A DNA stretch of 64,000 bases from Elusimicrobiota bacterium (GTDB lineage Bacteria > Elusimicrobiota > UBA8919), in contig JAFGLF010000018.1 of the NCBI GenBank assembly GCA_016928195.1, forward strand, positions 30,731 to 94,730, in the 5' to 3' direction. The notes below the pieces were generated by a model. It was not told where the DNA came from and did not search any database. It was given only the letters and a program-made list of their open reading frames with translations. This document shows, one piece after another, positions 5,010 through 63,206 of this stretch; the first letter of the stretch is position 1, and every line of letters starts with the position of its first letter. The position numbers and the translations under genes are program-made.

Positions 5010-6094
5010 TGTTTTAATTCCTTAATAAATTTCTTATTTTCAGAAGGCAATCCAATCGTAACCCTGATAAAATCCTTAAAATCGTATTCGTCCATTGCGC
5101 GCACTATAATCCCTTTACGTAAAAGTTTATTAAAGATCGTTTTCCCGTCACTTTTCACATTGATGAGTATAAAATTTGCCGCTGTAGGAACATACTCCAA
5201 ACCAATTTTTTCCAATTCTTTATATAAATATTTTTTCTGACTCAGTACCAGTGCTCTGGATTTTTTCATATGCTGTCTATCACTCAATGCCGCTGCTGCC
5301 GCAATCTGTGCAACCGAAGAAACATTGAAGGGCGGTCTGATTCTTTCAATATAGGATATTACTTCTTCAGAAGATATCCCGTATCCTATTCTTAAACCTG
5401 CCAGCCCGTATATCTTTGAAAATGTTCTTGCGAACATAACATTCAATCCTTTTTTTAAATACTCCATTCCCACAGGGCAATCATTTTCATCAACATATTC
5501 TGCATAGGCCTCGTCAACAAAAGTGAGCGGTGAGTAGTTAGCAGTGAGCAGTTTATTGAAATATTTCTCAAATTCTTGTTTTGTATTATATGTTCCTGTC
5601 GGATTATTCGGATTGGCAATAAAAACAATCTTTGTTTTTTCCGTCACAGCATCAGCCATAGCTTCCAGGTCGTGCTTATAGTTTTTCATAGGTACTTCAA
5701 CAACCTTACAATCCATCAAATCCCCTGCCATTTTATACCTGACAAAAGCATGTTCGGAAACTACTATCTCATCTTCCGGATTTAAAAATGTTTTCCCCAG
5801 AAGCTCTATTATTTCATCAATACCGCTTCCGAAAATTATCTGATTTTCACAAACACCATAAATACAGGCAACCTTACTTCTTAAATCAAAACAATATCCA
5901 TCAGGATAAATATTAACATTATTCAATACTTTTCTCAAAGCCAAAACGGCTTTTTTTGAAGGACCAAGAGAGTTTTCATTAGAAGCCAGTTTTATAACTT
6001 CTTTGAGCTTAAACTCACGTTTAACATCTTCCATGGGCTTGCCGGGTATGTACGGCTGACAACTTAAAACATTTTTTCTGACACAATTCTTCAT
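4997..6094 (-). CDS. hisC: histidinol-phosphate aminotransferase
   Basis: LASNENSLGP, NPNNPTG and FSKIYGLAGLRIGY (PLP-lysine region) motifs. 365 aa. Confidence 0.9.
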   Translation of the reverse strand: MKNCVRKNVLSCQPYIPGKPMEDVKREFKLKEVIKLASNENSLGPSKKAVLALRKVLNNVNIYPDGYCFDLRSKVACIYGVCENQIIFGSGIDEIIELLGKTFLNPEDEIVVSEHAFVRYKMAGDLMDCKVVEVPMKNYKHDLEAMADAVTEKTKIVFIANPNNPTGTYNTKQEFEKYFNKLLTANYSPLTFVDEAYAEYVDENDCPVGMEYLKKGLNVMFARTFSKIYGLAGLRIGYGISSEEVISYIERIRPPFNVSSVAQIAAAAALSDRQHMKKSRALVLSQKKYLYKELEKIGLEYVPTAANFILINVKSDGKTIFNKLLRKGIIVRAMDEYDFKDFIRVTIGLPSENKKFIKELKQCII

Positions 6095-6259
6095 AATTCT
6101 ATTCTTTTTACCTTTTTAATTGTGGGGCGAGCAAGGAATTTGCTCGGTACCCTTTCATGCCAAAGGCAGATCCGCCTCTGGCGGAAAGGAGCGCCGCCCC
6201 TTTGGGGCGAGCCTCGCCCATCTTTGATGGGCGGGACTCAAAAAAGTTTTTCTAAGTGG
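6095..6259. repeat. GC-rich mosaic hairpin element (family G)
   Basis: Chain of hairpins: GAGCAA/TTGCTC, TCCGCCTCTGGCGGA (6171-6185), GGGCGA/TCGCCC and CGCCCAT/ATGGGCG. 6127-6154 matches 18078-18105 at 27 of 28 positions. 6241-6266 resembles 58694-58721. Confidence 0.8.
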
Positions 6260-7321: not shown

Positions 7322-7389
7322 TTACTCCCTCCACCAAAACACAAATTACCACAAAGTAATCCGCCGCGGCGGACGGCCATTTGCGATAC
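7322..7389. repeat. word/palindrome spacer element
   Basis: CACAAATTACCACAAA plus TAATCCGCCGCGGCGGACG (palindrome at 7360-7373). Both modules recur at 63106-63165. Confidence 0.75.
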
Positions 7390-8004
7390 TTATCTCATCA
7401 TTATTAAAGATAACATTCTTTCTTTCGTCTTATTTCTCCTGTAAGAAAAAAAATTATTATTATGCGTACATATGTCGGCCAAACTAATCTTTTTCACATC
7501 CATACTATGTGCCTGTGCGGAAATAACTTTATCCAGATCAACACCATAACAGCATTTTTTTATATGCGGACCTACCGCAATAAAGATATCCAGAGGTTTT
7601 GAACCAAAACTTCTCATAAAAATATCTATTGCTTTTTTGATAATATTTTTTTCAAGACCGGCACGGCCGGCATGAACTAACCCGACTATCTTTTTTACTC
7701 TATCATGTATAAATACGGGCAGGCAATCCGCTGTAAAAACAGCAAGGGGAATACCTTTTTTATCAGTTATAAATCCATCTATTGCATGATTTATTTTAAA
7801 AATATCTTTTTTAGAAACAATTTTTATATTATCGCTATGTGTCTGAATGCCTGATACAAAATTTTTTATTCCAAAATACTTTAATACTTTTTCACGGTTC
7901 TTCTTATACTTCATATTACCATGAAAAACGGTAGTAGTAAAATTTACAATACCTTGTCTTTTAAGCTTATCCTCGTAATAAAAACCGTGTTTTAACTTCC
8001 ACAT
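7390..8004 (-). CDS. pgeF: YfiH/PgeF family (DUF152) purine nucleoside phosphorylase / peptidoglycan editing factor
   Basis: FTADCLPVF, GLVHAGRAG and CCYGV motifs. The ATG overlaps the pilT stop (TAATG). Confidence 0.8.
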   Translation of the reverse strand: MWKLKHGFYYEDKLKRQGIVNFTTTVFHGNMKYKKNREKVLKYFGIKNFVSGIQTHSDNIKIVSKKDIFKINHAIDGFITDKKGIPLAVFTADCLPVFIHDRVKKIVGLVHAGRAGLEKNIIKKAIDIFMRSFGSKPLDIFIAVGPHIKKCCYGVDLDKVISAQAHSMDVKKISLADICTHNNNFFSYRRNKTKERMLSLIMMR

Positions 8005-9092
8005 TAACCTATCCCGGTTGATTCACTGCCAGAAGTTATTCCTCGTACATTCATCATAAGTTCTTCCGGATTTGATGCGGCTGCAAGAACATCCTCAAGT
8101 GCAACATCTCCGGAATTGTAAAGGTTTAGAAGGGCCTGGTTAAACAACTGCATACCATAATAATTACCCTGCTTTATTGCCTGTGTTATTTCCCCCATAG
8201 TATTTTGTTCGATATGTTTTTTCACCAATGTTGTGACAACAAGAATTTCACAGGCAGGAACTCTTCCCCTCTTCGTGCTAGGTAAAAGACGCTGGGATAT
8301 AACCCCTTTCAATGTATCTGCAAGCTGAAGCCTAATCTGATTCTGATGATGCGGAGGAAACATATCAATAATTCTTGTAACCGTCTGAACCGCATCAATT
8401 GTATGAATCGTCGAAAGTACAAGATGTCCTGTCTGAGCAGCTGTCAATGCAGCTGCCATTGTTTCATTATCCCGCATCTCTCCGATTAAAATAACATCCG
8501 GATCCTGCCTAACAACATGTTTTAATGCCTCGGAATAAGAAAGCGTATCGAGACCAAGTTCGCGCTGTGAAATTATTGAGAGTTTGTCTTTATGCAAAAA
8601 TTCAATAGGATCCTCAATGGTTATTATATTTGTAGAACGACTGGAGTTTATATAATCAATCATGGCAGCAAGTGTTGTGGACTTCCCGCAGCCGGTTGTA
8701 CCTGTAACCAATACAAGACCTCTATGATTCTCTGCTATCCTTTTTATAGAATCTGGAAGACCTATTGAATCAAGAGACGGTACTTCACTGGGAACACATC
8801 TCATTACTATATTAACAGTTCCCTTCTGGCGATAAACATTCCCTCTAAACCTGCCGATATCAGCAGCAGCATAAGATAAATCACACTCACCTTTCTCCAT
8901 AAAAACTTCCCGCTGCTTATCATTCATAATCGACTGGGCAATTTTTTCCATCTGTTCTATTGTAAATACCTTATCCTTAATAGGGTTAAGCTTACCATTA
9001 ATTCTTAAAACGGCCGGCATATCTGCACGTAAATGCAAATCAGATGCTTTCTGGGAAACTGTAATTTTAAGAAGTTCGTTTAATTCTTGCAT
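8004..9092 (-). CDS. pilT: type IV pilus retraction ATPase PilT
   Basis: Walker A GTTGCGKSTT and Walker B DVILIGEMRD. PilT-type His box region (LVLSTIHT). 362 aa. Confidence 0.9.
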   Translation of the reverse strand: MQELNELLKITVSQKASDLHLRADMPAVLRINGKLNPIKDKVFTIEQMEKIAQSIMNDKQREVFMEKGECDLSYAAADIGRFRGNVYRQKGTVNIVMRCVPSEVPSLDSIGLPDSIKRIAENHRGLVLVTGTTGCGKSTTLAAMIDYINSSRSTNIITIEDPIEFLHKDKLSIISQRELGLDTLSYSEALKHVVRQDPDVILIGEMRDNETMAAALTAAQTGHLVLSTIHTIDAVQTVTRIIDMFPPHHQNQIRLQLADTLKGVISQRLLPSTKRGRVPACEILVVTTLVKKHIEQNTMGEITQAIKQGNYYGMQLFNQALLNLYNSGDVALEDVLAAASNPEELMMNVRGITSGSESTGIG

Positions 9093-9203
9093 ATTATCCT
9101 CGCTTCGTTCGGAACGCGAATTCTCGCGAATCCAACGCTAATTATCGCGAATTATTCGCGTACATTCGCGTTGCCTCTACTATTAGCGTGTATTTGCGTT
9201 TAC
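9093..9203. repeat. dyad word array, CGCGAAT family
   Basis: Forward CGC[GT]AAT at 9115, 9125, 9136 and 9146. Reverse ATT[CAT]GCG at 9154, 9164, 9182 and 9192. Spacing is mostly 10-11 nt. Confidence 0.85.
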
Positions 9204-10277
9204 TCATTTAAGTTTTCTTGCTTTTATTCTTTTGTATGCGGGTATATCTAGATCATCACTCTTTTTCTTTTCTTCTTTATAAATAATCTTTTTCTGTTTT
9301 GACGCTTTCTTACCGCCTAAGAACCCGGTAGCAATAACGGTAACTCTTAAAGTATCGTTTAAATCATCATCAAATGCCTGTCCATAAATAAGATGTGCCT
9401 CTGGCAGTACTGCGTTATGAATTATTGACATTGCCGTATCTATTTCTGACATCTTTAAATCTTTATTGTTTCCCGTAATATTAACCAAAACACCCTTTGC
9501 ACCGTCAATACTTACATCCTCAAGCAATGGACTGGAAATAGCTCTATTTGTAGCTTCCTTGGCACGGTCATCCCCGGTAGCCTCACCATAACCAAGTAAT
9601 GCATCCCCTGCATTCTGCATAATAGTTTTGACATCCTGAAAATCAACATTTATCATACCGTGGGACGTTATAACATCTGATATTGCCTGAACAGCCCTTT
9701 TAAGGACTTCATTGGCTTTTTCATATGCCTGAGTCGAAAGCGTTTCTTCATCTATTATTGCAAACAATCGTTGATTCGGAATTTCAATTAAAGCATCCGT
9801 GTGATTTTTAAATTCCTTTATTCCTTCCTCTGCTATTGTCATTTTAACTTTGCCTTCCCACATAAAAGGTTTTGTTACAACACCAACTGTAAGAATTCCC
9901 ATTTGCTTTGCTATTCTCGCTACTACAGGAGCACCCCCGGTCCCGGTACCACCGCCCATACCGGCAGTAATTAAAACCATATCGGCTCCTTTTAATATTT
10001 GCTCAATAGTAGAAGCACTTTCTTCAGTTGCCTGACGGCCTATTTCCGGCTTAGCTCCTGAACCCTGGCCCTTTGTAAGTTTCGGTCCAAGTTGAATCTT
10101 ATGTTCTGCTAAAGACTTTGCAAGAGAATCCGAATCAGTATTTGCTGCAATAAACTGAACACTCTTTATATTTGAAACAACCATCAGATTGACGGCATTA
10201 CCGCCTCCGCCGCCAATGCCGATAACCTTTATATTTGCAGGAATTGTATTAGAATCATCAATAATTTTTAATTTCAT
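9204..10277 (-). CDS. ftsZ: cell division GTPase FtsZ
   Basis: [11 protein letters not shown] and tubulin signature [11 protein letters not shown]-terminal conserved peptide DIPAYKR. Confidence 0.97.
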
Positions 10278-10393
10278 ATTAGTACTGATTGCGGTGATTT
10301 TAACAGCAGATTACAGTGATAATTAACAACCAAAAGAGACACATCACCGTAATCGTTCTTTCCATCGCTGTAATCAATACCGCTTTAGCGGGA
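10278..10393. repeat. dyad word array, GATT/AATC family
   Basis: Forward CTGATTG, GGTGATT, GCAGATTA and AGTGATAA. Then reverse CATCACC, TAATCG, CATCGCTG and TAATCAAT. Confidence 0.6.
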
Positions 10394-11626
10394 TTAAATC
10401 ATTTCTTCAAACATTCGTCTGACTTTTGTAAGAATTCCCGGTTTCTTGGTCTTGCATCTGCCAGACTTTTCAAATTCCGGCAGATATGAATATTTTATGA
10501 GCCCCATTCCGCAAGCAAGTGCAGGATCAGCCATACCATTTATAGAACCTTTTACATACTGCGGGATCCCGAGACGAGAAGGCATCTGTAAAACCTCTTC
10601 ACATGCTTCTTTTAATCCCAAAAGCTGACAGCCACCACCGGTAATTATGGCACCTGCAGAAATCATATCCTTATATTGGGTTTTTATTATCTCATCATCC
10701 ACAAACGACAGGATTTCTTCAACTCTTGGTTTTATAATATCACAGAGTGTTTTTCTAGTGGTTCTCTTCTGGGTTCTACCGTCTACAGAAAGATATGATA
10801 TTTCTTCCTTGACATCTATAAGCGAAGTAATAGCGGAGCCGTACTGTTCCTTTAAATCTTGGGCAACCTGATAAGATGTACTCAAACCCCGAGCAATGTC
10901 CATTGTTATATTTTTTCCTCCGAGAGGAAGCTCTTTAATACACCGGCTTGAACCATCAAGATAAACTGCAATATCGGTAGTTTGGTCGCCCATATCAATT
11001 AACACACAGCCAATTTTCTTTTCCTGCTCTGATACGGTAACCTCAGCGGTTGCCAGAATACTCGAAATAAAATTTTTACATTCAAAACCCGCAGAGCTAA
11101 CGCACTTACCCAGATTATTTATTGCGGAACTCAGACCTGTGACTATATGTGCATCTACCGACAAGTGTGAACCCTCCAACCCCACAGGGTCGGTTATTCC
11201 TCTCTGCCCGTCCACAATAAAATCCTGCGGTATAATATGAATTATTTCTTTATCAAAACCAAGCCGGATCTGCTTAGCGGAACCTATCACATGCGCAACA
11301 TCATCAGGTGTAATTTCTTTATCTGTTCTTGTAACATTTATTGCTGTAGAATGATTATACGATTCAATATGCTGACCTTTTATGCTGACGATAAGCTCGT
11401 CGTCATATATCTTTCCCTCAGCATTCTCTTCCGCCTGGTTGACTGCAGCGGTAATTGCGTGTTCTGTTTCTTTCATATTAACAACGGAACCGTGTTTAAG
11501 TCCTTTACAAGGCGTAACGCCTATTCCGATAACTTCAGGTAAATCCAATTCATACTTTTTTGCAATTACACAGGCTACTTTTGAGGAACCGACATCAAGC
11601 CCTGCAATTATTTTTTCTCTTGGCAT
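10394..11626 (-). CDS. ftsA: cell division protein FtsA
   Basis: Actin-fold motifs AGLDVGSSKV, DMGDQTTDIAV and ITGGGCQL. Lies between ftsQ and ftsZ. Confidence 0.95.
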   Translation of the reverse strand: MPREKIIAGLDVGSSKVACVIAKKYELDLPEVIGIGVTPCKGLKHGSVVNMKETEHAITAAVNQAEENAEGKIYDDELIVSIKGQHIESYNHSTAINVTRTDKEITPDDVAHVIGSAKQIRLGFDKEIIHIIPQDFIVDGQRGITDPVGLEGSHLSVDAHIVTGLSSAINNLGKCVSSAGFECKNFISSILATAEVTVSEQEKKIGCVLIDMGDQTTDIAVYLDGSSRCIKELPLGGKNITMDIARGLSTSYQVAQDLKEQYGSAITSLIDVKEEISYLSVDGRTQKRTTRKTLCDIIKPRVEEILSFVDDEIIKTQYKDMISAGAIITGGGCQLLGLKEACEEVLQMPSRLGIPQYVKGSINGMADPALACGMGLIKYSYLPEFEKSGRCKTKKPGILTKVRRMFEEMI

Positions 11627-11692: not shown

Positions 11693-12457
11693 TTATTGTG
11701 TTCTTAAAACGATTTCTTTATACTCATCTGAAAAATCACGCATATTTATATATTCCGCCCTTTCCCCTTTCACTTCCAAATCAGCAAGCACTCTTTCAAG
11801 ATAAGTAATTTTATAATCAACATCCACGGGCATACCTATACATACCCTGCAGTTATCTGATAAAAAAAATATAATATCATCCGGTGCATTAGCCGTAATA
11901 CTTTTAATATTTTTATATATCGGCAAACCGCTGACTCTTTTCAAAAATTCCAGACAAGCTTTTTTATTTTCCAAAGCCAAGTCTTTAGTTATACTCGGCA
12001 GTAATTTATAATCCTGTGGCAGAACGAACATTTTAAGATATTCATCAATACCTATTCTTTTTTTTGCGATTTTACGTTCTACAAGAGGAACCCTTTCTAT
12101 AATTTTTGCTGCAATTTTATCCGGTAAACGCCTTTTTATATTAATACTCTCTATTGCAGGAAATTTTTCCCTGAGTAATGATTCAACTTTTCCAATTTTA
12201 AGTTGAAAAATATTTTTCCCGTTAAAGTCAATATACCCAAGAACTTCACTTTCCGCAATAATGTTATTGCCTCTAACTTCTATCAATTTTACATTAAAAA
12301 TAGGAGATGTCAATAGAAATTTTACCGCCCTACTGCCAGCGAAAAAAAGGGCGATAATTACCGCAAGAGATACTATTATTTTAATAGCTATATCTTTTCG
12401 TTTTTTATACCGCTCTACCTTTGTTTTATACCGTATTTTTACCTTATATCTCTTCAT
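11693..12457 (-). CDS. ftsQ: cell division protein FtsQ (POTRA domain)
   Basis: Basic N-terminus, one TM helix and a POTRA-like segment (VKLIEVRGNN). Lies between ddl and ftsA. Start set at the first ATG (12457); the track ORF starts at TTG 12487. Start uncertain. Confidence 0.7.
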   Translation of the reverse strand: MKRYKVKIRYKTKVERYKKRKDIAIKIIVSLAVIIALFFAGSRAVKFLLTSPIFNVKLIEVRGNNIIAESEVLGYIDFNGKNIFQLKIGKVESLLREKFPAIESINIKRRLPDKIAAKIIERVPLVERKIAKKRIGIDEYLKMFVLPQDYKLLPSITKDLALENKKACLEFLKRVSGLPIYKNIKSITANAPDDIIFFLSDNCRVCIGMPVDVDYKITYLERVLADLEVKGERAEYINMRDFSDEYKEIVLRTQ

Positions 12458-12487
12458 TTCATATGTAACGAACAACCCGAATGACAA

Positions 12488-12568
12488 CGAACAGCACGAA
12501 TAATTTTATTTTTTCGTGTGATTCGTATACATATATTCGTGTAATTCGTTATTACCCATTAAGTTTTA
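12488..12568. repeat. dyad word array, CACGAAT/ATTCGTG variant
   Basis: CACGAAT (12495), then an AT-rich centre, then TTTCGTG, ATTCGTA, ATTCGTG and ATTCGTT. Confidence 0.6.
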
Positions 12569-13471: not shown

Positions 13472-13594
13472 ACAATTAAGAACGCGAATTTCCGCAAATC
13501 TAACGCTAATGGTCGCGAATAACTGTCCGTCAGCTGACGGATTAATTCGTGTGTATTCGCGTTGTCTTTCCTGTTCGCGACTATTCGCGTTATA
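13472..13594. repeat. dyad word array with CCGTCAGCTGACGG core
   Basis: Forward words at 13483, 13493, 13504 and 13514. Palindrome at 13527-13540. Reverse words at 13545, 13555, 13573 and 13583. 13517-13569 matches 55066-55118 with 1 mismatch in 53 nt. Confidence 0.9.
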
Positions 13595-14509: not shown

Positions 14510-15878
14510 TCAAAACTTTTAAAAACTCCGCAGATTTTTTCCAAATATCTCCTGCACCGAGCGTAAGGACAATATCTCCATTTTTTATTTCCTTAACGAT
14601 ATTTTTTACCGTTTTAAATTTTGCCACATCATTTCCTCCTGTCTTTTTAACGGAATCAATTATTGTCTGTGAGGAAATTCCGGGTATAGGTTTTTCGCTT
14701 GCTGCGTAAATATCAAGTATTCTGACTACGTCGGCATCAACAAAGGCAGTACCAAACTCGTCCTGCAAAAGTTGTGTTCTTGTATACCTGTGCGGCTGAA
14801 ATAAAACAAATAATCTCTTATTAGGATTAATAGATTTAATTGCAGAAAGTGTTGCCTTTATTTCAGTTGGATGATGGCCGTAATCGTCAATAAAAATAAC
14901 GTCCTTATAACTGCCTTTTCTTTCCAGACGGCGGCCTACTCCGTCAAAATCAAGCAATGCTTTTGCTATTACATCAAATTTAATATCAAGTTCATAACCA
15001 CACACAATGCCTGCAAGGGCATTCAGGATATTATGTTTACCGGGAATTTTTAAATCAATGTTTCCGAGAATCTTTCCGCGGTAAGAAACATCGAATTTAC
15101 TGCCGGTAATCGTTGTTTTAACACTTTCGGCCTTAAAATCAGCCGAACCGCTTAAACCGTATGTATAATATCTTCTCTTTATTTTTGGAATTATACTTTT
15201 AATGTTTTCATCATCATTACATAAAATAGTATAACCATAAAATGGAATCTTATTTATAAACTGTATAAATGCATCCTTTACGTTTTCAAGAGTACCGTAA
15301 TGATCAAGATGGTCATTGTCTATATTCGTAACAACTGCAAATGTCGGAAAAAGTTTTAAAAAGGAACCATCTGATTCATCCGCCTCTGCTACAAGATATT
15401 CGCCGTTGCCCATTTTAGCACCTGTACCAAAATTATTAAATTTCCCTCCAATAACAGCAGTAGGGTCAAGACCGGCATTCGCCAGAATCAAGGATGTCAT
15501 AGATGTCACTGTTGTTTTACCATGGCATCCGGCAATTGCTATTGAATATTTTAACCGCATTAATTCGGCAAGCATTTCTGCACGGGGAATAACAGGAATT
15601 TTTCTTGAATGTGCCGCTACTACTTCAGGGTTATCTTTTTTAACTGCTGTGGAGGTTACAACTACATCTGCCGGCGCATCTTCGATATTTTCTTTTTTAT
15701 GTCCTATTTTAACTTTTGCACCAAGACCGGCAAGATGCTTTGTTACATCGGATTCTTTTAAATCAGAACCGCTTACGTTAAAACCAAGATTTAGAAGCAC
15801 TTCAGCAATACCCGACATACCGCTTCCGCCGATTCCTACAAAATGAATATTACGAAATTTTTTTCTAAACATGATCAC
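14490..15878 (-). CDS. murC: UDP-N-acetylmuramate--L-alanine ligase
   Basis: HFVGIGGSGMSGIA, GCHGKTTVTSM, EADESDGSF and DDYGHHPTE. Confidence 0.95.
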   Translation of the reverse strand: MIMFRKKFRNIHFVGIGGSGMSGIAEVLLNLGFNVSGSDLKESDVTKHLAGLGAKVKIGHKKENIEDAPADVVVTSTAVKKDNPEVVAAHSRKIPVIPRAEMLAELMRLKYSIAIAGCHGKTTVTSMTSLILANAGLDPTAVIGGKFNNFGTGAKMGNGEYLVAEADESDGSFLKLFPTFAVVTNIDNDHLDHYGTLENVKDAFIQFINKIPFYGYTILCNDDENIKSIIPKIKRRYYTYGLSGSADFKAESVKTTITGSKFDVSYRGKILGNIDLKIPGKHNILNALAGIVCGYELDIKFDVIAKALLDFDGVGRRLERKGSYKDVIFIDDYGHHPTEIKATLSAIKSINPNKRLFVLFQPHRYTRTQLLQDEFGTAFVDADVVRILDIYAASEKPIPGISSQTIIDSVKKTGGNDVAKFKTVKNIVKEIKNGDIVLTLGAGDIWKKSAEFLKVLNDDKPF

Positions 15879-17702: not shown

Positions 17703-17790
17703 ATACTTTGCCGAATTACACGAATAAAATAAACGAATCACACTAATTTTATATTCGTATAATTCGTTATCATTCGTATTATTCGTGTCC
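17703..17790. repeat. dyad word array, CGAAT/ATTCG variant
   Basis: Forward CCGAAT, CACGAAT, AACGAAT and CACTAAT. Reverse ATTCGT[ATG] at 17752, 17762, 17772 and 17781. The last word supplies the final codons and stop of the cupin gene. Confidence 0.75.
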
Positions 17791-18057
17791 TCCGAATTTA
17801 TAGACCTTATTTATTTTTTCCAAAACATTCCACTTACATTTGAGACCTTTTGGAAATGTTACAAGGTCGCCTTTATTGATTTCAACGGTACCGTCAGGTG
17901 TTTCTACATTAACCTTACCTTCTAAAATATAACAGGTCTCATCATCAGAATATTCCCAGTCAAAACTTGATACCTCACATCCCCATGAACCCCATGCTTT
18001 TACATTAAGTTTTTTAAGTTCTTCTTTTGAAGGTCTTTTTACCTTTATTTTCCCCAT
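17779..18057 (-). CDS. small cupin-domain protein (cupin_3/DUF861-like)
   Basis: 92-aa single beta-barrel (DETCYILEGKVNV ... GDLVTFPKG). Confidence 0.7.
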   Translation of the reverse strand: MGKIKVKRPSKEELKKLNVKAWGSWGCEVSSFDWEYSDDETCYILEGKVNVETPDGTVEINKGDLVTFPKGLKCKWNVLEKINKVYKFGGHE

Positions 18058-18229
18058 AATATACCTCTTAATAGTGAGCGAGCAAGAAATTTGCTCGGTA
18101 CCCTTAAGGAGCGACTACCACCCAGCAGGAGCGACGCCAGAGCGAAGCCGACCCGCTTCGCTCTCGCTTCAGCGAGGCGAGCAGGGTGGTCGGCTGAGCG
18201 TGTCCGACAAATTTGCTTGCGAGCGACCG
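18058..18229. repeat. GC-rich mosaic hairpin element (family G)
   Basis: GAGCGA/TCGCTC words and stems such as GAGCGAAGC/GCTTCGCTC. Shares the 28-nt block GCGAGCAAGRAATTTGCTCGGTACCCTT with 6127-6154. Confidence 0.8.
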
Positions 18230-22397: not shown

Positions 22398-22509
22398 TCG
22401 CTTTGCGAATACGTTTATATGCTTATATGCTGATACGTTGATACGATTAAATGTTCTTACATATCTACATATCACCGTATTTCCATATCATCGTTACGTT
22501 GTCTCCTAT
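22398..22509. repeat. dyad word array, CTGATAC/GTATCAG family
   Basis: GCTGATACGTTGATACG (22428-22444) is identical to the 17-mer at 50476-50492. Followed by reverse CATATC and TATCA words. Confidence 0.8.
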
Positions 22510-23067
22510 TTAGACTTCCATTATTTCTTTTTCTTTATGAAGCAGAATTTCATCTATTTTCTTTACATTACTATCTGTCAATTTCTGTAATTCATCCTGT
22601 GATTTAAATCTTTCGTCCTCTGTTATCTTCTTTTCGTTAAAATCTTTCTTAAGAACCTCAATAGCATCTCTCCTTTCGTTTCTCAAAATAACTTTATGCT
22701 CTTCGGTAATCTTTTTGGCTGTTTTTATAATGTCTTTTCGCCTTTCCTCTGTTAACTGCGGGATTGGAAGCCGTATAACCCTTCCATCATTCTGCGGAGT
22801 TATTCCTATATCTGCCTTTAATATTGCTTTTTCGAGATCGGGAAGTACGCTTTTTTCCCATGGTGTAATAACTATTAATCTGGATTCAGGAATCGAAATA
22901 CTTGCCACCTGATTTACAGGGACATCAGTGCCGTAGTACTTTACTTTTATACCGTCTAAAACTGCAGGAGTTGCACGACCTGCTTTAAGTGTTTGTAATT
23001 CCGACTTCAGATGTTCTATTGTTTTTCTCATTTTTTCTTCAATCTGCATTACAACTTGTTTAGACAT
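22510..23067 (-). CDS. frr: ribosome recycling factor
   Basis: 185-aa RRF family (LDGIKVKYYG, EERRKDIIK). Confidence 0.95.
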   Translation of the reverse strand: MSKQVVMQIEEKMRKTIEHLKSELQTLKAGRATPAVLDGIKVKYYGTDVPVNQVASISIPESRLIVITPWEKSVLPDLEKAILKADIGITPQNDGRVIRLPIPQLTEERRKDIIKTAKKITEEHKVILRNERRDAIEVLKKDFNEKKITEDERFKSQDELQKLTDSNVKKIDEILLHKEKEIMEV

Positions 23068-23184
23068 CTTCCCCCCTCCACTTTATTAGAAAATACGTTG
23101 ATAAGGAAATACGGTGATATGGATGAAGGTTTCACATATTTACATATCAGCATATCAACATATCAACATGTATTTACGTTTCTT
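23068..23184. repeat. dyad word array, GATA/TATC family
   Basis: Forward GTTGATA, GGTGATA and GGATGA. Centre GAAGGTTTC. Reverse CATATCAGC and ATATCAAC x2. Confidence 0.75.
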
Positions 23185-28624: not shown

Positions 28625-28764
28625 ATTCGCTTCGCGAATACACGAATTACCACAAATTAACAACCGAATTGCCGCAAATAATCCTTCAACCTTGCTCAGT
28701 ATGGTGAGCTTGTCGAACCATTAGCGGTAATTTGGGTTTTGATTCGCGGTCATTTGTATTCCTC
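28625..28764. repeat. word-array spacer (ATTCGCG + AATTACCACAAAT modules)
   Basis: AATTACCACAAATTAACAACCGAATTGCCGCAAAT closely parallels 63109-63143. Flanked by ATTCGCG/CGCGAAT words. Confidence 0.7.
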
Positions 28765-29871: not shown

Positions 29872-29984
29872 TTAAAATATTATATCAGAAATAAAAAAAA
29901 AGTCAACCCCACCACCCCGATAAATCGGGGCTGCGGGGCAACCCTATCTGTTCAAACTTATGATTACACCGATTTGAGCCATTA
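29872..29984. repeat. GC-rich hairpin spacer
   Basis: GTCAACCCCACCACC (29902-29916) is shared with 53354-53368. The CCCCGATAAATCGGGG hairpin (29915-29930) is the reverse complement of CCCGATTTATCGGG at 55050-55063. Confidence 0.7.
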
Positions 29985-30687: not shown

Positions 30688-31071
30688 TTAAAAACTCATT
30701 AATACGTCCAGCCTGTTTTTAACCCTTTTGATTTCTTCATATTCCGGATATTCCTGTACAATCCTTTTTAAAACTTCTATTGCCTGATGACGCCTCTGTG
30801 TTTCTGCATAGACCAGTCCCAATTGATACATAGCTTCGACATTATATTCTGACTCGGGATATTTTTCCGATATACGTTTAAAACAGAGTTCAGCATGTTC
30901 ATAATTGGACGCTGTTTTGTAAATTTTCCCTAAATTAAACTGAAGTTTAGGTGCCCAGGATTTATCCGAATTCTTATCGATATAATCCTGTAATTTCCCG
31001 GTTTTAATAAAATTCGATGCCCAATAAAAAATTCCGAGTACTATAAGAACAAATATTAAAAATTTTCTCAC
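30688..31071 (-). CDS. membrane-anchored TPR protein (YbgF/BamD-like repeats)
   Basis: N-terminal TM helix followed by two or three TPR-like repeats ending in EKYPESEY and QEYPEYEE. Confidence 0.6.
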   Translation of the reverse strand: MRKFLIFVLIVLGIFYWASNFIKTGKLQDYIDKNSDKSWAPKLQFNLGKIYKTASNYEHAELCFKRISEKYPESEYNVEAMYQLGLVYAETQRRHQAIEVLKRIVQEYPEYEEIKRVKNRLDVLMSF

Positions 31072-38496: not shown

Positions 38497-38910
38497 TTAT
38501 TGCTGACCGTCCGAAGCGTCTTTATCGCAGCAGCTTTTCTTTTTTGTAAGGAAATAACCTGCTACTCCGATAGCGCCAAGTCCGACTAAAACTGCAGCAG
38601 CCATAGGAATACCCGGAACTGAAGGGCCTCTATCTCTGTCTCTTCCTCTACCTCCGCCCCTTCCCCGGCCACTGCCTCTTCCCCGGTCACTGCCTCTTCC
38701 CCGGCCACTGCCTCTTCCCCGGTCTTCGTCTCTTTCTCTCGGAGCAGCATAAACATTTTGAACATTATTTATTTTGGTAAATTGGTTCAAAAGACTTATA
38801 TTTCCTAAACATTCCTGATGTCCCGACGAAGAATCCTGTCTCACATCCGGGATGGAAAACACGGCACATATGAACACTGCAATTATAATACTAACCAGTG
38901 TCTTTCTCAT
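38497..38910 (-). CDS. secreted Arg-Gly-repeat protein with C-terminal sorting-signal-like tail
   Basis: Signal peptide. RGRGSGRGRGSDRGRGSGRGRGGGRGRDRDRG. Then PSVPGIP, a 19-aa hydrophobic helix, KKK and a 12-aa tail. Start set to ATG 38910 (poly-G SD); the track starts at GTG 38919. Confidence 0.6.
   Translation of the reverse strand: MRKTLVSIIIAVFICAVFSIPDVRQDSSSGHQECLGNISLLNQFTKINNVQNVYAAPRERDEDRGRGSGRGRGSDRGRGSGRGRGGGRGRDRDRGPSVPGIPMAAAVLVGLGAIGVAGYFLTKKKSCCDKDASDGQQ
38663..38724. repeat. 18-bp tandem repeat inside the RG-repeat gene
   Basis: CCCCGG[CT]CACTGCCTCTT x3 plus a partial fourth copy. Encodes the RGRGS[GD] units. Confidence 0.9.
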
Positions 38911-39076
38911 AAAAATCACCCCCCCATAACTACGATTTAAACTAATAAAAACGCAGATTCAAACGGATTTACATCTGTCTGAATCCGTGACTACATCTGT
39001 TTTCATCTGTGTTTCCCATCTGTCTGCATCTGCGCCTTCATCTGTTTGCATCTGCACTTTCATCTGTCCGAATCGT
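38911..39076. repeat. phased CATCTG/CAGATG word array
   Basis: CATCTG at 38972, 38994, 39004, 39017, 39027, 39039, 39049 and 39061. Spacings are 22, 10, 13, 10, 12, 10 and 12 nt. The left part (GCAGATTCAAACGGATT ... GTCTGAATCCGTGACT) is shared with 51513-51603. Confidence 0.9.
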
Positions 39077-45869: not shown

Positions 45870-46000
45870 AATCTCTCCATTATAATATACACTGATATGC
45901 TGATACGTGAATATGTAAAAACCTTTATACGTATCAGCATACCTGCCCGATCAAGTCGTTCAGGCGGGGTTCCTTATCACTATATAACCGCATCTTACTA
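45870..46000. repeat. dyad word array, CTGATAC family + GC hairpin
   Basis: CTGATATGCTGATACGTGAATATG, then TAAAAACCTTT, then CGTATCAGCATA. Followed by CCTGCCCGA-N9-TCAGGCGGG, a module also found at 53688-53713. Confidence 0.8.
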
Positions 46001-47533: not shown

Positions 47534-47623
47534 ACACTCGAACGCGAATTGTCGCTAATCTAACGCTGATATTCGCGAATATTCGCGTTAGTTCATTTCA
47601 TTTGCGTAATTTGCGTTTCCTTA
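47534..47623. repeat. dyad word array, CGCGAAT family
   Basis: CGCGAAT 47543, CGCTAAT 47553, CGCTGAT 47564, ATTCGCGAATATTCGCG 47571-47587, and ATTTGCG at 47600 and 47609. Confidence 0.85.
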
Positions 47624-50450: not shown

Positions 50451-50553
50451 TTATTTCGCAAAAACATGTTGATAAGCTGATACGTTGATACGTAAATATA
50501 TAAAAACCTTTCTCCGTATCACCATATTCCCATATCAGCGATTTTCACAAACT
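50451..50553. repeat. dyad word array, CTGATAC family
   Basis: GTTGATA, GCTGATACGTTGATACG, then TAAAAACCTTT, then CGTATCAC, CATATT and CATATCAGC. Confidence 0.8.
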
Positions 50554-51244: not shown

Positions 51245-51475
51245 TTATTCAATAATCTCCACTCTGGAACGTCCGCCGTTTTTGGTTGCGGAAGCAGAAA
51301 CAACCTGGCGTATAGCTTTTATTATTTTACCCTGTTTACCAATAATTCTACCTTTATCCGATTCATCAACTTTAATTTTTATAAGTTTTCCAAAATCAGA
51401 ATCTTCAACAGTAACATTAACATTATCGGGTTTATCAACAATTGACTTAACAATATATTCTACAAGTTCTTTCAT
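51245..51475 (-). CDS. KH-domain RNA-binding protein (YlqC/UPF0109)
   Basis: 76 aa with the GRIIGKQGKIIKAIR GxxG loop. Classical position after rpsP. Confidence 0.8.
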   Translation of the reverse strand: MKELVEYIVKSIVDKPDNVNVTVEDSDFGKLIKIKVDESDKGRIIGKQGKIIKAIRQVVSASATKNGGRSRVEIIE

Positions 51476-51620
51476 ATATACTCCTCCAGAAACGATTCAA
51501 ACGGATAAAAATGCAGATTCAGACGGATTATTTTGGATGCAAACAGATTTATATCCCTGCCTGACGACTGCAGGCAGGTGTCTGAATCCGTGACTTCATC
51601 TGTTTACATCCGCGCTTACA
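51476..51620. repeat. dyad word array, GGATT/CAGATG family with CCTGCCT hairpin
   Basis: Forward ACGATTC, ACGGATA, GCAGATTCAGACGGATT, GGATGC and ACAGATT. Hairpin CCTGCCT (51556-62) / AGGCAGG (51572-78). Reverse GAATCCGT, CATCTGT, CATCCGC and CATCTGT. Runs into the rpsP 3-prime end. Confidence 0.85.
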
Positions 51621-55004: not shown

Positions 55005-55156
55005 TTCATCCTCACTATGTTCGGAAACGCTAATTATCGCAAATCAAATCCCGATTTATCGGGACGAATAACTGTCCGTCAGCTGACGGATTAATTCGCG
55101 TGTATTCGCGTTGTCTTTTTATTCGCGTACATTCGCGTTCCATTTTACCAAAAATC
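55005..55156. repeat. dyad word array with CCGTCAGCTGACGG core
   Basis: CGCTAAT 55028 and CGCAAAT 55038. CCCGATTTATCGGG 55050-55063. Palindrome 55076-55089. ATTCGCG at 55094, 55104, 55121 and 55131. Confidence 0.9.
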
Positions 55157-58573: not shown

Positions 58574-58714
58574 GTTTTAATTGAGGATCGACTATATTTC
58601 TACACATCCACGAAGGAAAACTTTTTATAGAGCCTTAACCCAGATTCATCTGGGTTTCAGAGTCCGCCGCGGCGGAGTGCCGAGCGTCTCAAGAAAAGTT
58701 TTTCCGAGTGGTTA
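58574..58714. repeat. mosaic hairpin element between coaC and coaB
   Basis: AACCCAGA TTCA TCTGGGTT (58637-58656). TCCGCCGCGGCGGA (58663-58676). The terminal block AAAAGTTTTTCCGAGTGGTTATT resembles 6241-6266. Confidence 0.8.
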
Positions 58715-63065: not shown

Positions 63066-63206
63066 CTTTTCCTCTCCTCTTCGTCCCAATACATCGGGAC
63101 TCATACACAAATTACCACAAATTAACTACCGAATTACCGCTAATCTAATCCGCCGCGGCGGACGAATATTCGCGTTACTTTTTCATTTGCGTTTATTCGC
63201 GTTCTT
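63066..63206. repeat. word array + TCCGCCGCGGCGGA palindrome spacer
   Basis: GTCCC...GGGAC hairpin. CACAAATTACCACAAATTAACTACCGAATTACCGCTAAT. Palindrome 63149-63162. Then ACGAATATTCGCGT, ATTTGCG and ATTCGCG. Confidence 0.85.

Follow-up and report, generated by a model that had tools for sequence, protein, structure and literature searches.

What fills the spacers between co-directional genes in an uncultured Elusimicrobiota genome with short words that face one another across a common centre? The question arises from a 64,000-nt stretch (hereafter, the window) of contig JAFGLF010000018.1 (assembly GCA_016928195.1, forward-strand positions 30,731 to 94,730). Starting from the ftsZ–pilT spacer, a first-pass annotation described forward and reverse blocks of 7-nt words and offered terminators or RNA stabilisers, protein-binding arrays or a proliferating repeat family as explanations. 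We found that these word arrays are real, dispersed and gained or lost at orthologous intercistronic sites, and that the same word blocks, in the same layout and orientation to transcription, bracket genes for GxxExxY proteins in other bacteria and in a close relative. On balance, we consider the arrays to be probably gene-less derivatives, akin to MITEs (miniature inverted-repeat transposable elements), of small cassettes with inverted word-block ends and one gene for a ~120-aa GxxExxY protein; that this putative nuclease mobilises the arrays is what we infer from the sequences.

The window has a GC content of ~36% and ~63 genes, all on the minus strand; the reported co-directionality holds for all of its long genes. 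It includes the dcw (division and cell wall) cluster (murC, murB, ddl, ftsQ, ftsA and ftsZ) followed by pilT. Its closest FtsZ relatives belong to uncultured Elusimicrobia and comprise a read-set assembly (88%), the metagenome-assembled genome (MAG) GCA_028718185.1 (80%) and RIFOXYC2_FULL_34_12 (79%). The spacer at 9093–9203 lies, as annotated, between ftsZ (9204–10277) and pilT (8004–9092), both on the minus strand, and the word positions proved exact: CGC[GT]AAT at 9115, 9125, 9136 and 9146 faces ATT[CAT]GCG at 9154, 9164, 9182 and 9192. In transcript sense, the stop codon is followed by ACGCAAAT, ACGCTAAT, a 10-nt linker and two copies of ACGCGAAT, then by the reverse block (ATTCGCGA, ATTAGCGT, ATTCGCGA, ATTCGCGT), the ribosome-binding site (RBS) and the pilT ATG.

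Word enrichment was compared with a dinucleotide-shuffle null, a check that the annotation had proposed. Of the 15 listed spacers, 10 had an excess of exact 6-mer pairs, direct and/or inverted, at z ≥ 3, and the remaining five (those starting at 10278, 12488, 28625, 45870 and 50451) had z 2–2.9. Values peaked in the 38911 spacer (z = 21) and the 13472 spacer (z = 9.5), the inverted excess alone peaked at z 9.5 across elements, and the ftsZ–pilT array reached z 3.0 for direct and 5.3 for inverted pairs. The arrays were also picked up independently by Tandem Repeats Finder. CGCGAAT occurs 21 times in 3.76 kb of spacer versus once in 59.7 kb of coding sequence, a ~330-fold higher density, and AACGCGA 11 times versus none.

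At least 16 intercistronic spacers of the window are built as a forward block followed by a reverse block, and the words point to the centre (>>>> <<<<) in every element. The description of each element as an inverted repeat thus holds for the order of blocks, but the element at 38911–39076 is essentially a direct array of nine forward and two reverse words. The proposed phasing at ~10–11 bp applies to the CGCGAAT/CGAAT family (22 of 33 spacings are 9–11) but not to TGATAYG words, spaced 8 or 16, or CAGAT/GGATT words, which alternate between 10 and 12 (period ~22). Because periods differ between families, helical phasing is not the common principle. Word linkers in the window measure 1–10 nt, periods are 8, 10, 12 and 21–22, and no head-to-tail 7-nt units occur. 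The label ‘inter-operon’ had to be dropped, with most array-bearing spacers lying within operons (the dcw cluster, rpsB–tsf–frr and rpsP–KH). Finally, some of the listed spacer limits overran mis-called open reading frame (ORF) starts; for example, since ftsQ really starts at the ATG of MKRYKV, the ddl–ftsQ element reaches ~12445. The longest ftsQ ORF begins at a TTG within the array (12437–12487), while comparison of five relatives places the real ATG (MKRYKVKIRYK) ~50 nt downstream in transcript sense.

The elements of the window are as follows.

9114–9199, minus strand: family A array (ACGCGAAT), 4+4 words, ftsZ–pilT; recognised by word spacing and 6-mer excess.
13482–13590, minus strand: family A array, 4+4, murB–ddl, with nested GC hairpin CCGTCAGCTGACGG at 13527–13540; 83% identical over 115 nt to the 55005 copy.
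47542–47616, minus strand: family A array, 3+4; 86% over 50 nt to the 9093 copy.
55027–55138, minus strand: family A array, four forward and two or three reverse words, with nested GC hairpins at 55076–55089 and 55050–55063; best same-orientation match to the ends of the L268 cassette described below (z 10).
63105–63202, minus strand: composite family A/A'' array, forward ACGCGAAT, reverse ATTAGCGG, ATTCGGTA and ATTTGTGG, with nested TCCGCCGCGGCGGA at 63149–63162; 3' arm 90% over 42 nt to the 28625 copy.
28625–28749, minus strand: family A'' array, forward CCGCGAAT/ACCCAAAT/CCGCTAAT, 47-nt core, reverse ATTTGCGG/ATTCGGTT/ATTCGTGT; recognised by words and copy alignment.
7339–7386, minus strand: partial A'' element at the Cu-oxidase_4/pheA junction, one forward word, GC hairpin at 7360–7373, reverse ATTTGTGG/ATTTGTGT.
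12445–12551, minus strand: family A2 array, ddl–ftsQ, four NACGAAT words facing ATTCGTG, GTTCGTT, ATTCGGG and GTTCGTT; ends approximate.
17718–17788, minus strand: family A2 array, three or four ACACGAAT/ATACGAAT words facing three ATTCGT words; best match to the L200 cassette ends (z 12).
10287–10375, no strand assigned: family D element, ftsA–ftsZ, 2+2 12-mers (GATTACAGCGAT and GATTACGGTGAT facing ATCACTGTAATC and ATCACCGCAATC), a local variant of the widespread GATTACACAGAT.
38953–39067, no strand assigned: family C/D array, nine forward (A/G)CAGAT words with period ~22 and two reverse words; 6-mer z 21.
51501–51603, no strand assigned: family C/D array, 2+4, around GC hairpin CCTGCCTGCAG..CAGGCAGG, between rpsP and a KH-domain gene.
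22415–22490, no strand assigned: family B array, three TGATATG words facing four CGTATCA/CATATAA words, period 8.
23099–23165, no strand assigned: family B array, tsf–frr, oriented opposite to the remaining B copies.
45893–45979, no strand assigned: family B array, 2+2, with a GC-rich insert.
50470–50537, no strand assigned: family B array, 2+3.
58663–58676, no strand assigned: free-standing GC palindrome TCCGCCGCGGCGGA, of a separate class resembling repetitive extragenic palindromic (REP) sequences; nested copies lie in the arrays at 7360–7373 and 63149–63162.

All-against-all comparison of these non-coding, 70–125-bp elements (at least 16 copies in 64 kb) resolved three to four families whose members align through their linkers. 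The match between the 13472 and 55005 copies includes both linkers and the nested GC hairpin, and the flanking genes are unrelated; the 23068 and 50451 copies align at 79% over 89 nt only when one is flipped. In family A, two words are followed in the 5' block by a purine-rich linker of ~10 nt and then by one or two further words, and the words of the 3' block are evenly spaced. The five full copies of family A all point the same way relative to transcription and replication; family B copies occur in both orientations. Similarity is higher between neighbouring words than between distant ones, and copies differ in their number of words. The gene frr (22510–23067) sits between two family B arrays of opposite orientation (22415–23165) and looks ‘bracketed’ because two independent elements happen to flank it.

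Comparison with relatives revealed that gene order is kept and spacer occupancy varies, a polymorphism that the annotation had suggested looking for. The ftsA–ftsZ spacer measures 116 nt in the window, 103 nt in L082 and 134 nt in L087 versus 22 nt in L083 and 6 nt in L088. A 2+2 element of the 12-mer GATTACACAGAT occupies this spacer in the window, L082 and L087, and a 4+4 array of ACCGAAT takes its place in L089; different families thus fill one and the same spacer in different relatives. The ftsZ–pilT spacer is 111 nt long in the window versus 13 nt in L083. Further dialects among the relatives include GTGGGATA facing CCCTATAA, AGTTATAG facing CCCTAWAA and AGTGATT facing AACCACTT. No arrays were detected in L090, a 53% FtsZ relative, and the only other assembly of the window's genome (L081) is 100% identical over 7.3 kb.

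Two junctions carry footprints of insertion. In four relatives, ddl and ftsQ overlap by 14 nt (gATGAAAAAACATAA), while an array splits the pair in the window and in L082. A perfect direct duplication of 9 nt, ATGAAAAGA, surrounds the L082 array; ddl gains a new stop from its upstream copy, and the start of ftsQ comes from its downstream copy. A degraded version of this duplication is present in the window. Cu-oxidase_4 and pheA likewise overlap in relatives and are split in the window, again with a degraded duplication. Such occupancy changes and duplicated junctions are the behaviour of inserted elements and not of conserved regulatory modules.

A gene-bearing form of these elements emerged from metagenomes, which were scanned for two tandem GATTRCACAGAT words; most family D elements were fetched in this way, with one perfect arm required. 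Tandem GATTRCACAGAT was present in at least 120 metagenome stretches on contigs of 31–64% GC, among them 46 stereotyped 2+2 elements with near-invariant 12-mers and free linkers and loops (word, ~9–10 nt, word, loop of 5–43 nt, reverse word, ~9–10 nt, reverse word). At several D loci, the word pairs lie ~400 nt apart around a single ~122-aa gene. In the cassette of locus L124, the terminal part of the second forward word provides the ATG of this gene, whose stop codon overlaps the first reverse word. The product belongs to the GxxExxY family (TIGR04256; 126.1 bits versus a cutoff of 35) and to Pfam PDDEXK_3 (PF13366; 119.3 bits versus a cutoff of 22; 1.5e-34). The GxxExxY family is catalogued as being of unknown function and as having undergone many lateral transfers (PMC3424549). 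Among all fetched bacterial loci, a profile search detected seven intact copies, each of them bracketed by words, with inverted-word flanks at z 5–12.6 where both flanks were available; weaker flanks were seen for L149, which is flanked by complete hairpins (z 2.2), and for the 5'-truncated L145 (z 1.8). No other recurrent cargo gene was found between word blocks.

To counter selection bias, GxxExxY proteins were also collected by protein similarity alone (at least 7,963 at E ≤ 1e-10), and four genomic contexts were inspected. All four were bracketed by GATTACACAGAT-type words and co-directional with the host operon. The insertion sites were rpsK–rpsD (in two organisms, one of them a Deltaproteobacteria MAG), ftsY–radical SAM and an operon for an extracellular contractile injection system (eCIS); the hosts, of 34–50% GC, share the same 12-mer GATTACACAGAT. 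Gene-bearing forms with window-like end blocks or D words are found in L268, L200, L262, L263 and L266, among others. A ~80%-identical GxxExxY subfamily occupies the rpsK–rpsD spacer in many metagenomes (L102, L124, L150, L261 and L262), where the frameshifted copy in L150 and the missing upstream word pair in L261 indicate decay alongside conservation.

Cassettes also exist in the window's own dialect. In L200, an Elusimicrobia MAG, the lepB stop codon is followed by four CACGAAT words, ~190 nt, a gene for a distant GxxExxY protein (31% identity), four ATTCGTG words, an RBS and the next gene. L268, a locus of GCA_028718185.1, encodes an 84% homolog of the L200 protein (P0242) at the same lepB–nfeD site and with the same 4+4 blocks; the stop codon of P0242 lies inside the second reverse word. 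The same locus carries a gene-less 2+2 element at 5557–5610 (ACGCGAAT-CACGAAT facing GTTCGCGA-ATTAGCGT) that has TTCGCGATAATTAGCGT in common with the ftsZ–pilT array of the window. When the gene was deleted in silico, the cassette ends matched window A/A2 arrays at z 5–12, while the control spacers (family B, family C and AT-rich ones) stayed at z ≤ 2.4. The matches extend through the long A-rich linker and, for the 55005, 13472 and 17703 copies, are stronger in the same orientation. Both dialects are common as gene-less dyads on other contigs; no lepB/nfeD site lies within the window. Judged from these alignments, the arrays of the window are homologous to the end blocks of GxxExxY cassettes. 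The annotation's option of a proliferating element family, of the MITE type or of the type of REP sequences and bacterial interspersed mosaic elements (BIMEs), is accordingly supported: paralogous families align through linkers, copies are present or absent at orthologous sites and cassettes share the word blocks.

The words themselves are conserved as sequence across very different hosts. In 74 distinct D elements, word deviations were compensated in 3 cases and uncompensated in 171, with 4.6 compensated cases expected if the two sides were independent. Variation was concentrated at positions 5 and 7–9, which suggests a bipartite GATTAC-NNN-GAT site. Near-invariance of the 12-nt words across hosts of 31–64% GC, together with uncompensated changes, points to recognition by a protein and not to RNA pairing. 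The option of protein-binding arrays is thereby supported as well.

The simplest candidate for such a protein is encoded by the cassettes. Across 34 GxxExxY sequences from both dialect subfamilies, the ~120-aa protein has invariant G12, E17, K18, Y20, D56, E66 and K68, the last three of which leave the D..ExK catalytic motif intact. A PDB sequence search with the GxxExxY profile gave no match. An AlphaFold model (predicted local distance difference test score 92.4) has Cas4, lambda-exonuclease and RecB-type nucleases as its closest solved folds (template modelling scores 0.5–0.6), and GxxExxY is, according to this model, a minimal PD-(D/E)XK nuclease core without an extra DNA-binding domain.

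We propose that each word would be a binding site for a cassette-encoded protein, most simply a GxxExxY nuclease multimer on 2+2 or 4+4 sites, which could pair the two blocks, cut DNA and move or copy the element. Gene-less copies may be mobilised in trans or may simply persist. Elements would land between co-directional genes and be co-transcribed, insertions being tolerated, in this proposal, because the element folds back and leaves the stop codon and the next RBS intact. Tandem-word slippage and arm-to-arm correction might then make each copy drift as a unit and so generate the ‘dialects’. The specific version of this model, in which GxxExxY proteins are sequence-specific nucleases that recognise the words flanking their own gene, mobilise a ~0.5-kb unit and leave hairpin swarms behind, is tentative and to us possible rather than probable. 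The gene-bearing form stands a substantial chance of being a minimal mobile element of a new type.

Several points weigh against this picture. No PD-(D/E)XK protein is known to act as a sole transposase. No GxxExxY gene was found in the 64-kb window or in L082–L089, and supply by a trans-acting copy has to be assumed. Neither family B nor the variant composed of exact ACGCGAAT alone yielded a gene-bearing form. At 49 GxxExxY loci on viral contigs (29–44% identity), inverted-word flanks were at chance level, indicating that the link between protein and array is specific to subfamilies or lineages and not universal. A clear target duplication exists at one site only, L082 ddl/ftsQ, with a degraded one at a second, and no target-site duplication is recognisable for family A at murB–ddl or ftsZ–pilT. 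Moreover, at overlapping genes only junction-duplicating insertions survive, which makes the duplication partly a survivorship effect. The compensation test is biased because the metagenome scan demanded one perfect arm, and its repetition at ≤4 mismatches per word was swamped by chance matches. Lastly, G–U mispairs outnumber A–C mispairs by ~2:1 on the transcript strand (~70:37 in the window and 20:10 in D elements), which could be a mild RNA-level constraint or a transcription-associated C-to-T bias.

The G–U excess leads to the alternative that survives best, although we regard it as unlikely: that the arrays are host-beneficial RNA modules, transcribed hairpins acting as barriers to 3' exonucleases, as RNase III sites or as weak attenuators, in the manner of E. 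coli REP/BIME elements, with GxxExxY as a passenger in the loop. Their position within operons, directly after stop codons and before the next RBS, would suit such a role, as would array fold energies below those of shuffles (z −2.5 to −5.5), but these z values are equally negative on the non-transcribed strand. When gene-less D hairpins were oriented by their flanking genes, 31 of 41 assessable ones lay between co-directional genes and 10 between convergent or divergent ones; their mispairs in transcript sense comprised 20 G–U, 10 A–C and 40 others, so that 40 of 70 are unable to pair even by wobble. The retention of words as sequence across hosts of widely different GC content, the two orientations of family B and the 13–22-nt orthologous spacers of close relatives, which do without arrays, speak against RNA modules as well. 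Rfam 15 at gathering scores gave no matches in the window.

Tests for transcription signals pointed the same way. Arrays are not followed by T-runs, terminator-like sites were not above shuffles (22 versus 13.7 ± 4.3; 14 versus 14.7 ± 4.7), and the few terminator-like matches inside arrays are nested GC hairpins. Promoter-like sites (−35/−10 hexamers spaced by 16–18 nt) were not above shuffles either, and two near-consensus promoters (53357–53330 and 44616–44589) lie in spacers without arrays. The arrays are not promoters or intrinsic terminators. A primary role as terminator or RNA stabiliser, the annotation's first suggestion, therefore finds no support given the lack of U-tracts, terminator counts at shuffle level, family B in both orientations and a majority of unpairable mispairs. 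Nor are the spacers merely conserved promoter–terminator pairs free of paralogy, the counter-explanation it had named, since paralogous copies exist and neither signal exceeds shuffles.

We give less credence to the idea that the arrays resemble REPINs (REP doublets forming hairpins) moved by a REP-associated tyrosine transposase (RAYT, a Y1 transposase) or another host enzyme, with GxxExxY as captured cargo. Single-strand transposition predicts a single orientation, as observed for the five full family A copies, and family A lacks a clear target duplication. The search for a RAYT-like gene that the annotation had recommended succeeded in part: none is present in the window, but in the genome of a relative a 165-aa ORF (L268 229–726) scores 75.6 bits against NF047646 (‘REP-associated tyrosine transposase’), for which the curated cutoff is 80. 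No single word is a palindrome or has the GTAG/CGTC head of REPs (PMC3733652), one insertion shows a 9-nt duplication, and separate GC-rich, REP-like hairpins in the same genomes fit a RAYT better. The RAYT-like ORF could plausibly mobilise the GC hairpins and is less likely to mobilise the arrays. In addition, GxxExxY start and stop codons that are built into the words suggest a co-evolved unit and not captured cargo.

Improbable, in our assessment, is a purely local origin as ‘palindromic minisatellites’, created by slippage and fold-back or template-switch synthesis with neither transposition nor a dedicated protein. It would account for adjacent words being more alike than distant ones, for variable word number, for the window ftsA–ftsZ element, in which position 8 has changed in concert in all four words, and for contiguous heptamer dyads of many different words in unrelated phyla. 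It does not account for copies between unrelated genes that align through linkers and nested inserts, for an identical 12-mer in the same 2+2 layout on contigs of 31–64% GC from at least two phyla, or for the same blocks bracketing a specific gene family; slippage probably shapes copies after insertion without explaining their origin. Very improbable, finally, are operator or nucleoid-protein binding arrays with one dialect per host regulator for gene control or chromosome organisation: sequence conservation of the words would suit them, as would the ~10-bp spacing of family A, which would place sites on one helix face, repeated words at 10–11 bp being typical of some response-regulator sites, but the arrays sit within promoterless spacers of housekeeping operons, periods of 8 and 12 are unfit for helical phasing, close relatives lack arrays at the same genes and at least three dialects stand over functionally unrelated genes.

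Some known sequence classes were set aside early. DnaA boxes, DNA-uptake sequences and LexA/Fur-type operators were set aside as ill-fitting in words and contexts. Integron attC sites are imperfect palindromes (R''/L''-L'/R') with RYYYAAC/GTTRRRY cores beside cassette ORFs and depend on an IntI integrase; they were set aside on inspection, the words being unlike attC cores and the flanking genes belonging to the core housekeeping set, with their order conserved. The fetched loci showed no integrase.

Among described mobile elements, MITEs are closest to the arrays, being likewise small (70–125 bp here), non-coding and multi-copy, with inverted ends, presence/absence variation and, at one well-preserved insertion, a duplicated target; the arrays also share their ends with a longer gene-bearing form. 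They differ from MITEs in that the inverted repeat is not continuous and consists of blocks of two to four short words with free linkers, and in that the gene-bearing partner is only ~0.5 kb long and encodes a 120-aa PD-(D/E)XK-fold protein instead of a recognised transposase. The ends of Tn7, Mu, Ac/Ds and En/Spm carry two to four short, centre-facing transposase-binding words each, with unequal spacing at the two ends. Family A ends are similarly unequal (two words, long linker and two words at the 5' side versus four even words at the 3' side), whereas Tn7/Mu-type elements are kilobases long and use DDE transposases with accessory proteins. A gene of the DDE transposase type was not seen in ~150 kb of the window's clade.

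REP, REPIN and BIME sequences are comparable as dense, intergenic, palindromic hairpin repeats that are often located within operons, REPINs consisting of two inverted units and BIMEs of mosaics of units and linkers (PMC3116915, PMC3733652, PMC2817692). The REP unit, however, is a 20–40-nt GC-rich palindrome with a GTAG/CGTC head, unlike the non-palindromic 7–12-nt array words (PMC3733652). The GC hairpins of the window (for example, TCCGCCGCGGCGGA), which coexist with the arrays and nest inside them, are a better REP fit and a different element. Other elements share single traits. BrickBuilt of Porphyromonas gingivalis is a MITE around internal tandem sub-repeats and always intergenic, but it is a single-species family with a contiguous 23-nt minisatellite, small inverted ends, promoter activity and no word-block dyad (PMC4596501). 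The intervening sequence (IVS) of 23S rRNA genes (Coxiella, S23p) is a selfish insert of a few hundred nucleotides in a highly transcribed unit, carried along by host transcription, with a small ORF in the loop of a long stem made by its inverted ends, but it resides in rRNA, from which RNase III removes it, and its product is a four-helix-bundle protein (PMC4990558); the cassettes described here occupy intercistronic sites and combine a nuclease-fold ORF with sequence-conserved word-array ends.

The first-pass annotation did not recognise its word-array grammar among described repeat families, a view that is largely right, although two partial precedents exist. Xanthomonas genomes each contain ~70–75 convergent pairs of GGGAATC heptamer arrays with unknown function, and Nostoc has GGGGA(T/C)T arrays (Rehm et al. 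2015, PMC4692102). As in the window, a tandem word is followed by its opposite-strand tandem, mostly in intergenic regions between co-directional genes and near the upstream ORF; unlike in the window, the arrays are contiguous, use one G-rich word per genome and are discussed as G-quadruplex formers (PMC4692102). Our arrays have spaced words (8+2, 12+9), several dialects and a gene-bearing form. The second precedent is provided by the TAACTGA repeats of Beggiatoaceae, Cyanobacteria and Bacteroidetes, which are intergenic in distant phyla, occur in ribosomal-protein operons and stand just before start codons (MacGregor 2015, PMC4679880). Their horizontal spread is suspected, with the mechanism unknown, but they are overwhelmingly direct (169 direct sets versus 1 indirect), were proposed as sites of a translational regulator and have no associated gene (PMC4679880).

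Dyads of the same plan were detected more widely. A first detector (7-mers, ≤1 mismatch, 170-nt span) was not discriminating because unrelated high-GC loci scored as high as the window; in a stricter version, the ~18-nt linker within the arm of family A leads to undercounting of that family. Among loci fetched for their PilT gene, the strict detector identified the dyad plan in Nitrospirota, Thermoanaerobaculia, Acidobacteriota and Terriglobia. Some are contiguous heptamer dyads between a stop codon and the next RBS, such as (AATGTTG)x5...(CAACATT)x5 and (GGTTGGC)x4...(GCCAACC)x4 (L041 4292–4392 and 7311–7385; L043 11179–11268; L046 2561–2645 and 14410–14494; further sites at L007 6146–6215, L063 2090–2175 and L048 6824–6892). 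No GxxExxY gene lies near the contiguous heptamer dyads of these PilT-fetched loci. The arrays of the window are a dense, multi-family, spaced-word variant of this widespread class of intergenic dyad repeats, and within the searchable literature this is the first tie of such repeats to a specific small nuclease-fold gene. The probable parent mobile element is widespread and apparently undescribed.

Heptamer words of the Xanthomonas, cyanobacterial and Beggiatoa types have been known for decades without a mechanism, and the same architecture is tied here to a small gene. The association gives a testable function to the GxxExxY/PDDEXK_3 family, with its thousands of members and no known role, and a way to annotate much non-coding DNA in the compact genomes of uncultured lineages. 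It also points to a candidate minimal mobile element whose insertions fall between cistrons, overlapping genes included, and leave operons unbroken. If mobilisation by the nuclease is true, the cassettes would be among the smallest autonomous bacterial DNA elements, parasitising the spacers of highly expressed operons across phyla, with Elusimicrobia, Deltaproteobacteria and probably others as hosts, and many unexplained heptamer-dyad repeats would be accounted for. If the words are specific protein sites, protein/word pairs of different dialects might serve as orthogonal DNA-recognition modules. Should the association be incidental, the arrays would still be unusually dense, multi-family MITE-like repeats that explain the variation in spacer length among these genomes.

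In addition to the arrays, the window contains small GC palindromes (TCCGCCGCGGCGGA, CCGTCAGCTGACGG and CCCGAT..ATCGGG) that recur both free-standing and nested inside arrays (7360–7373, 58663–58676 and 63149–63162; 13527–13540 and 55076–55089; 55050–55063 and 29916–29929) and look like a second, REP-like class separate from the arrays. Related GTCATTCCCG..CGGGAATGAC hairpins fill spacers in L268 and L200. Another dispersed repeat family, common to the window and L083, consists of GC-rich hairpin clusters with the motif ..GCTCG..GCAAATT(T/C)..CTTGCTCGC.. (window 6095–6259 and 17742–18060; L083 13915–14135 and 19134–19300).

Two ORFs adjoin C/D arrays of the window. A small rpsP-like ORF (51330–51520) seems to run into the first array words (C-terminus ...KKTTMQTDVSADVNR), and the array may thus provide its last codons and stop. 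A 140-aa ORF (38497–38919) without an NCBIfam match lies directly downstream of the window's largest direct word array and contains 3.7 copies of the 18-nt tandem repeat GCCTCTTCCCCGGCCACT (93% match) at 38656–38722.

Outside the window, a gene-less 551-nt stretch at 15432–15982 of L087 (15161–15711 of L085) has D-type words on either side of a GC-rich, structured-looking segment, and a strong promoter-like region comes next; the stretch may represent a decayed cassette or an RNA gene. On the viral-collection contig L297, CACGAAT words stand tail-to-tail at several sites (2929–2990 and 10599–10680; three ATTCGTG words, then CGCGAAT and CACGAAT), which may mark the junction of neighbouring elements. 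In the ribosomal-protein operons of two Deltaproteobacteria-like genomes, ATTGCAAA faces TTTGCAAT in the orthologous secY–adk spacers (L261 3796–3905; L262 3792–3921), and L262 uses a further dialect after rpsH (225–304), with four AAGTGGA words facing four CCACTYT words.

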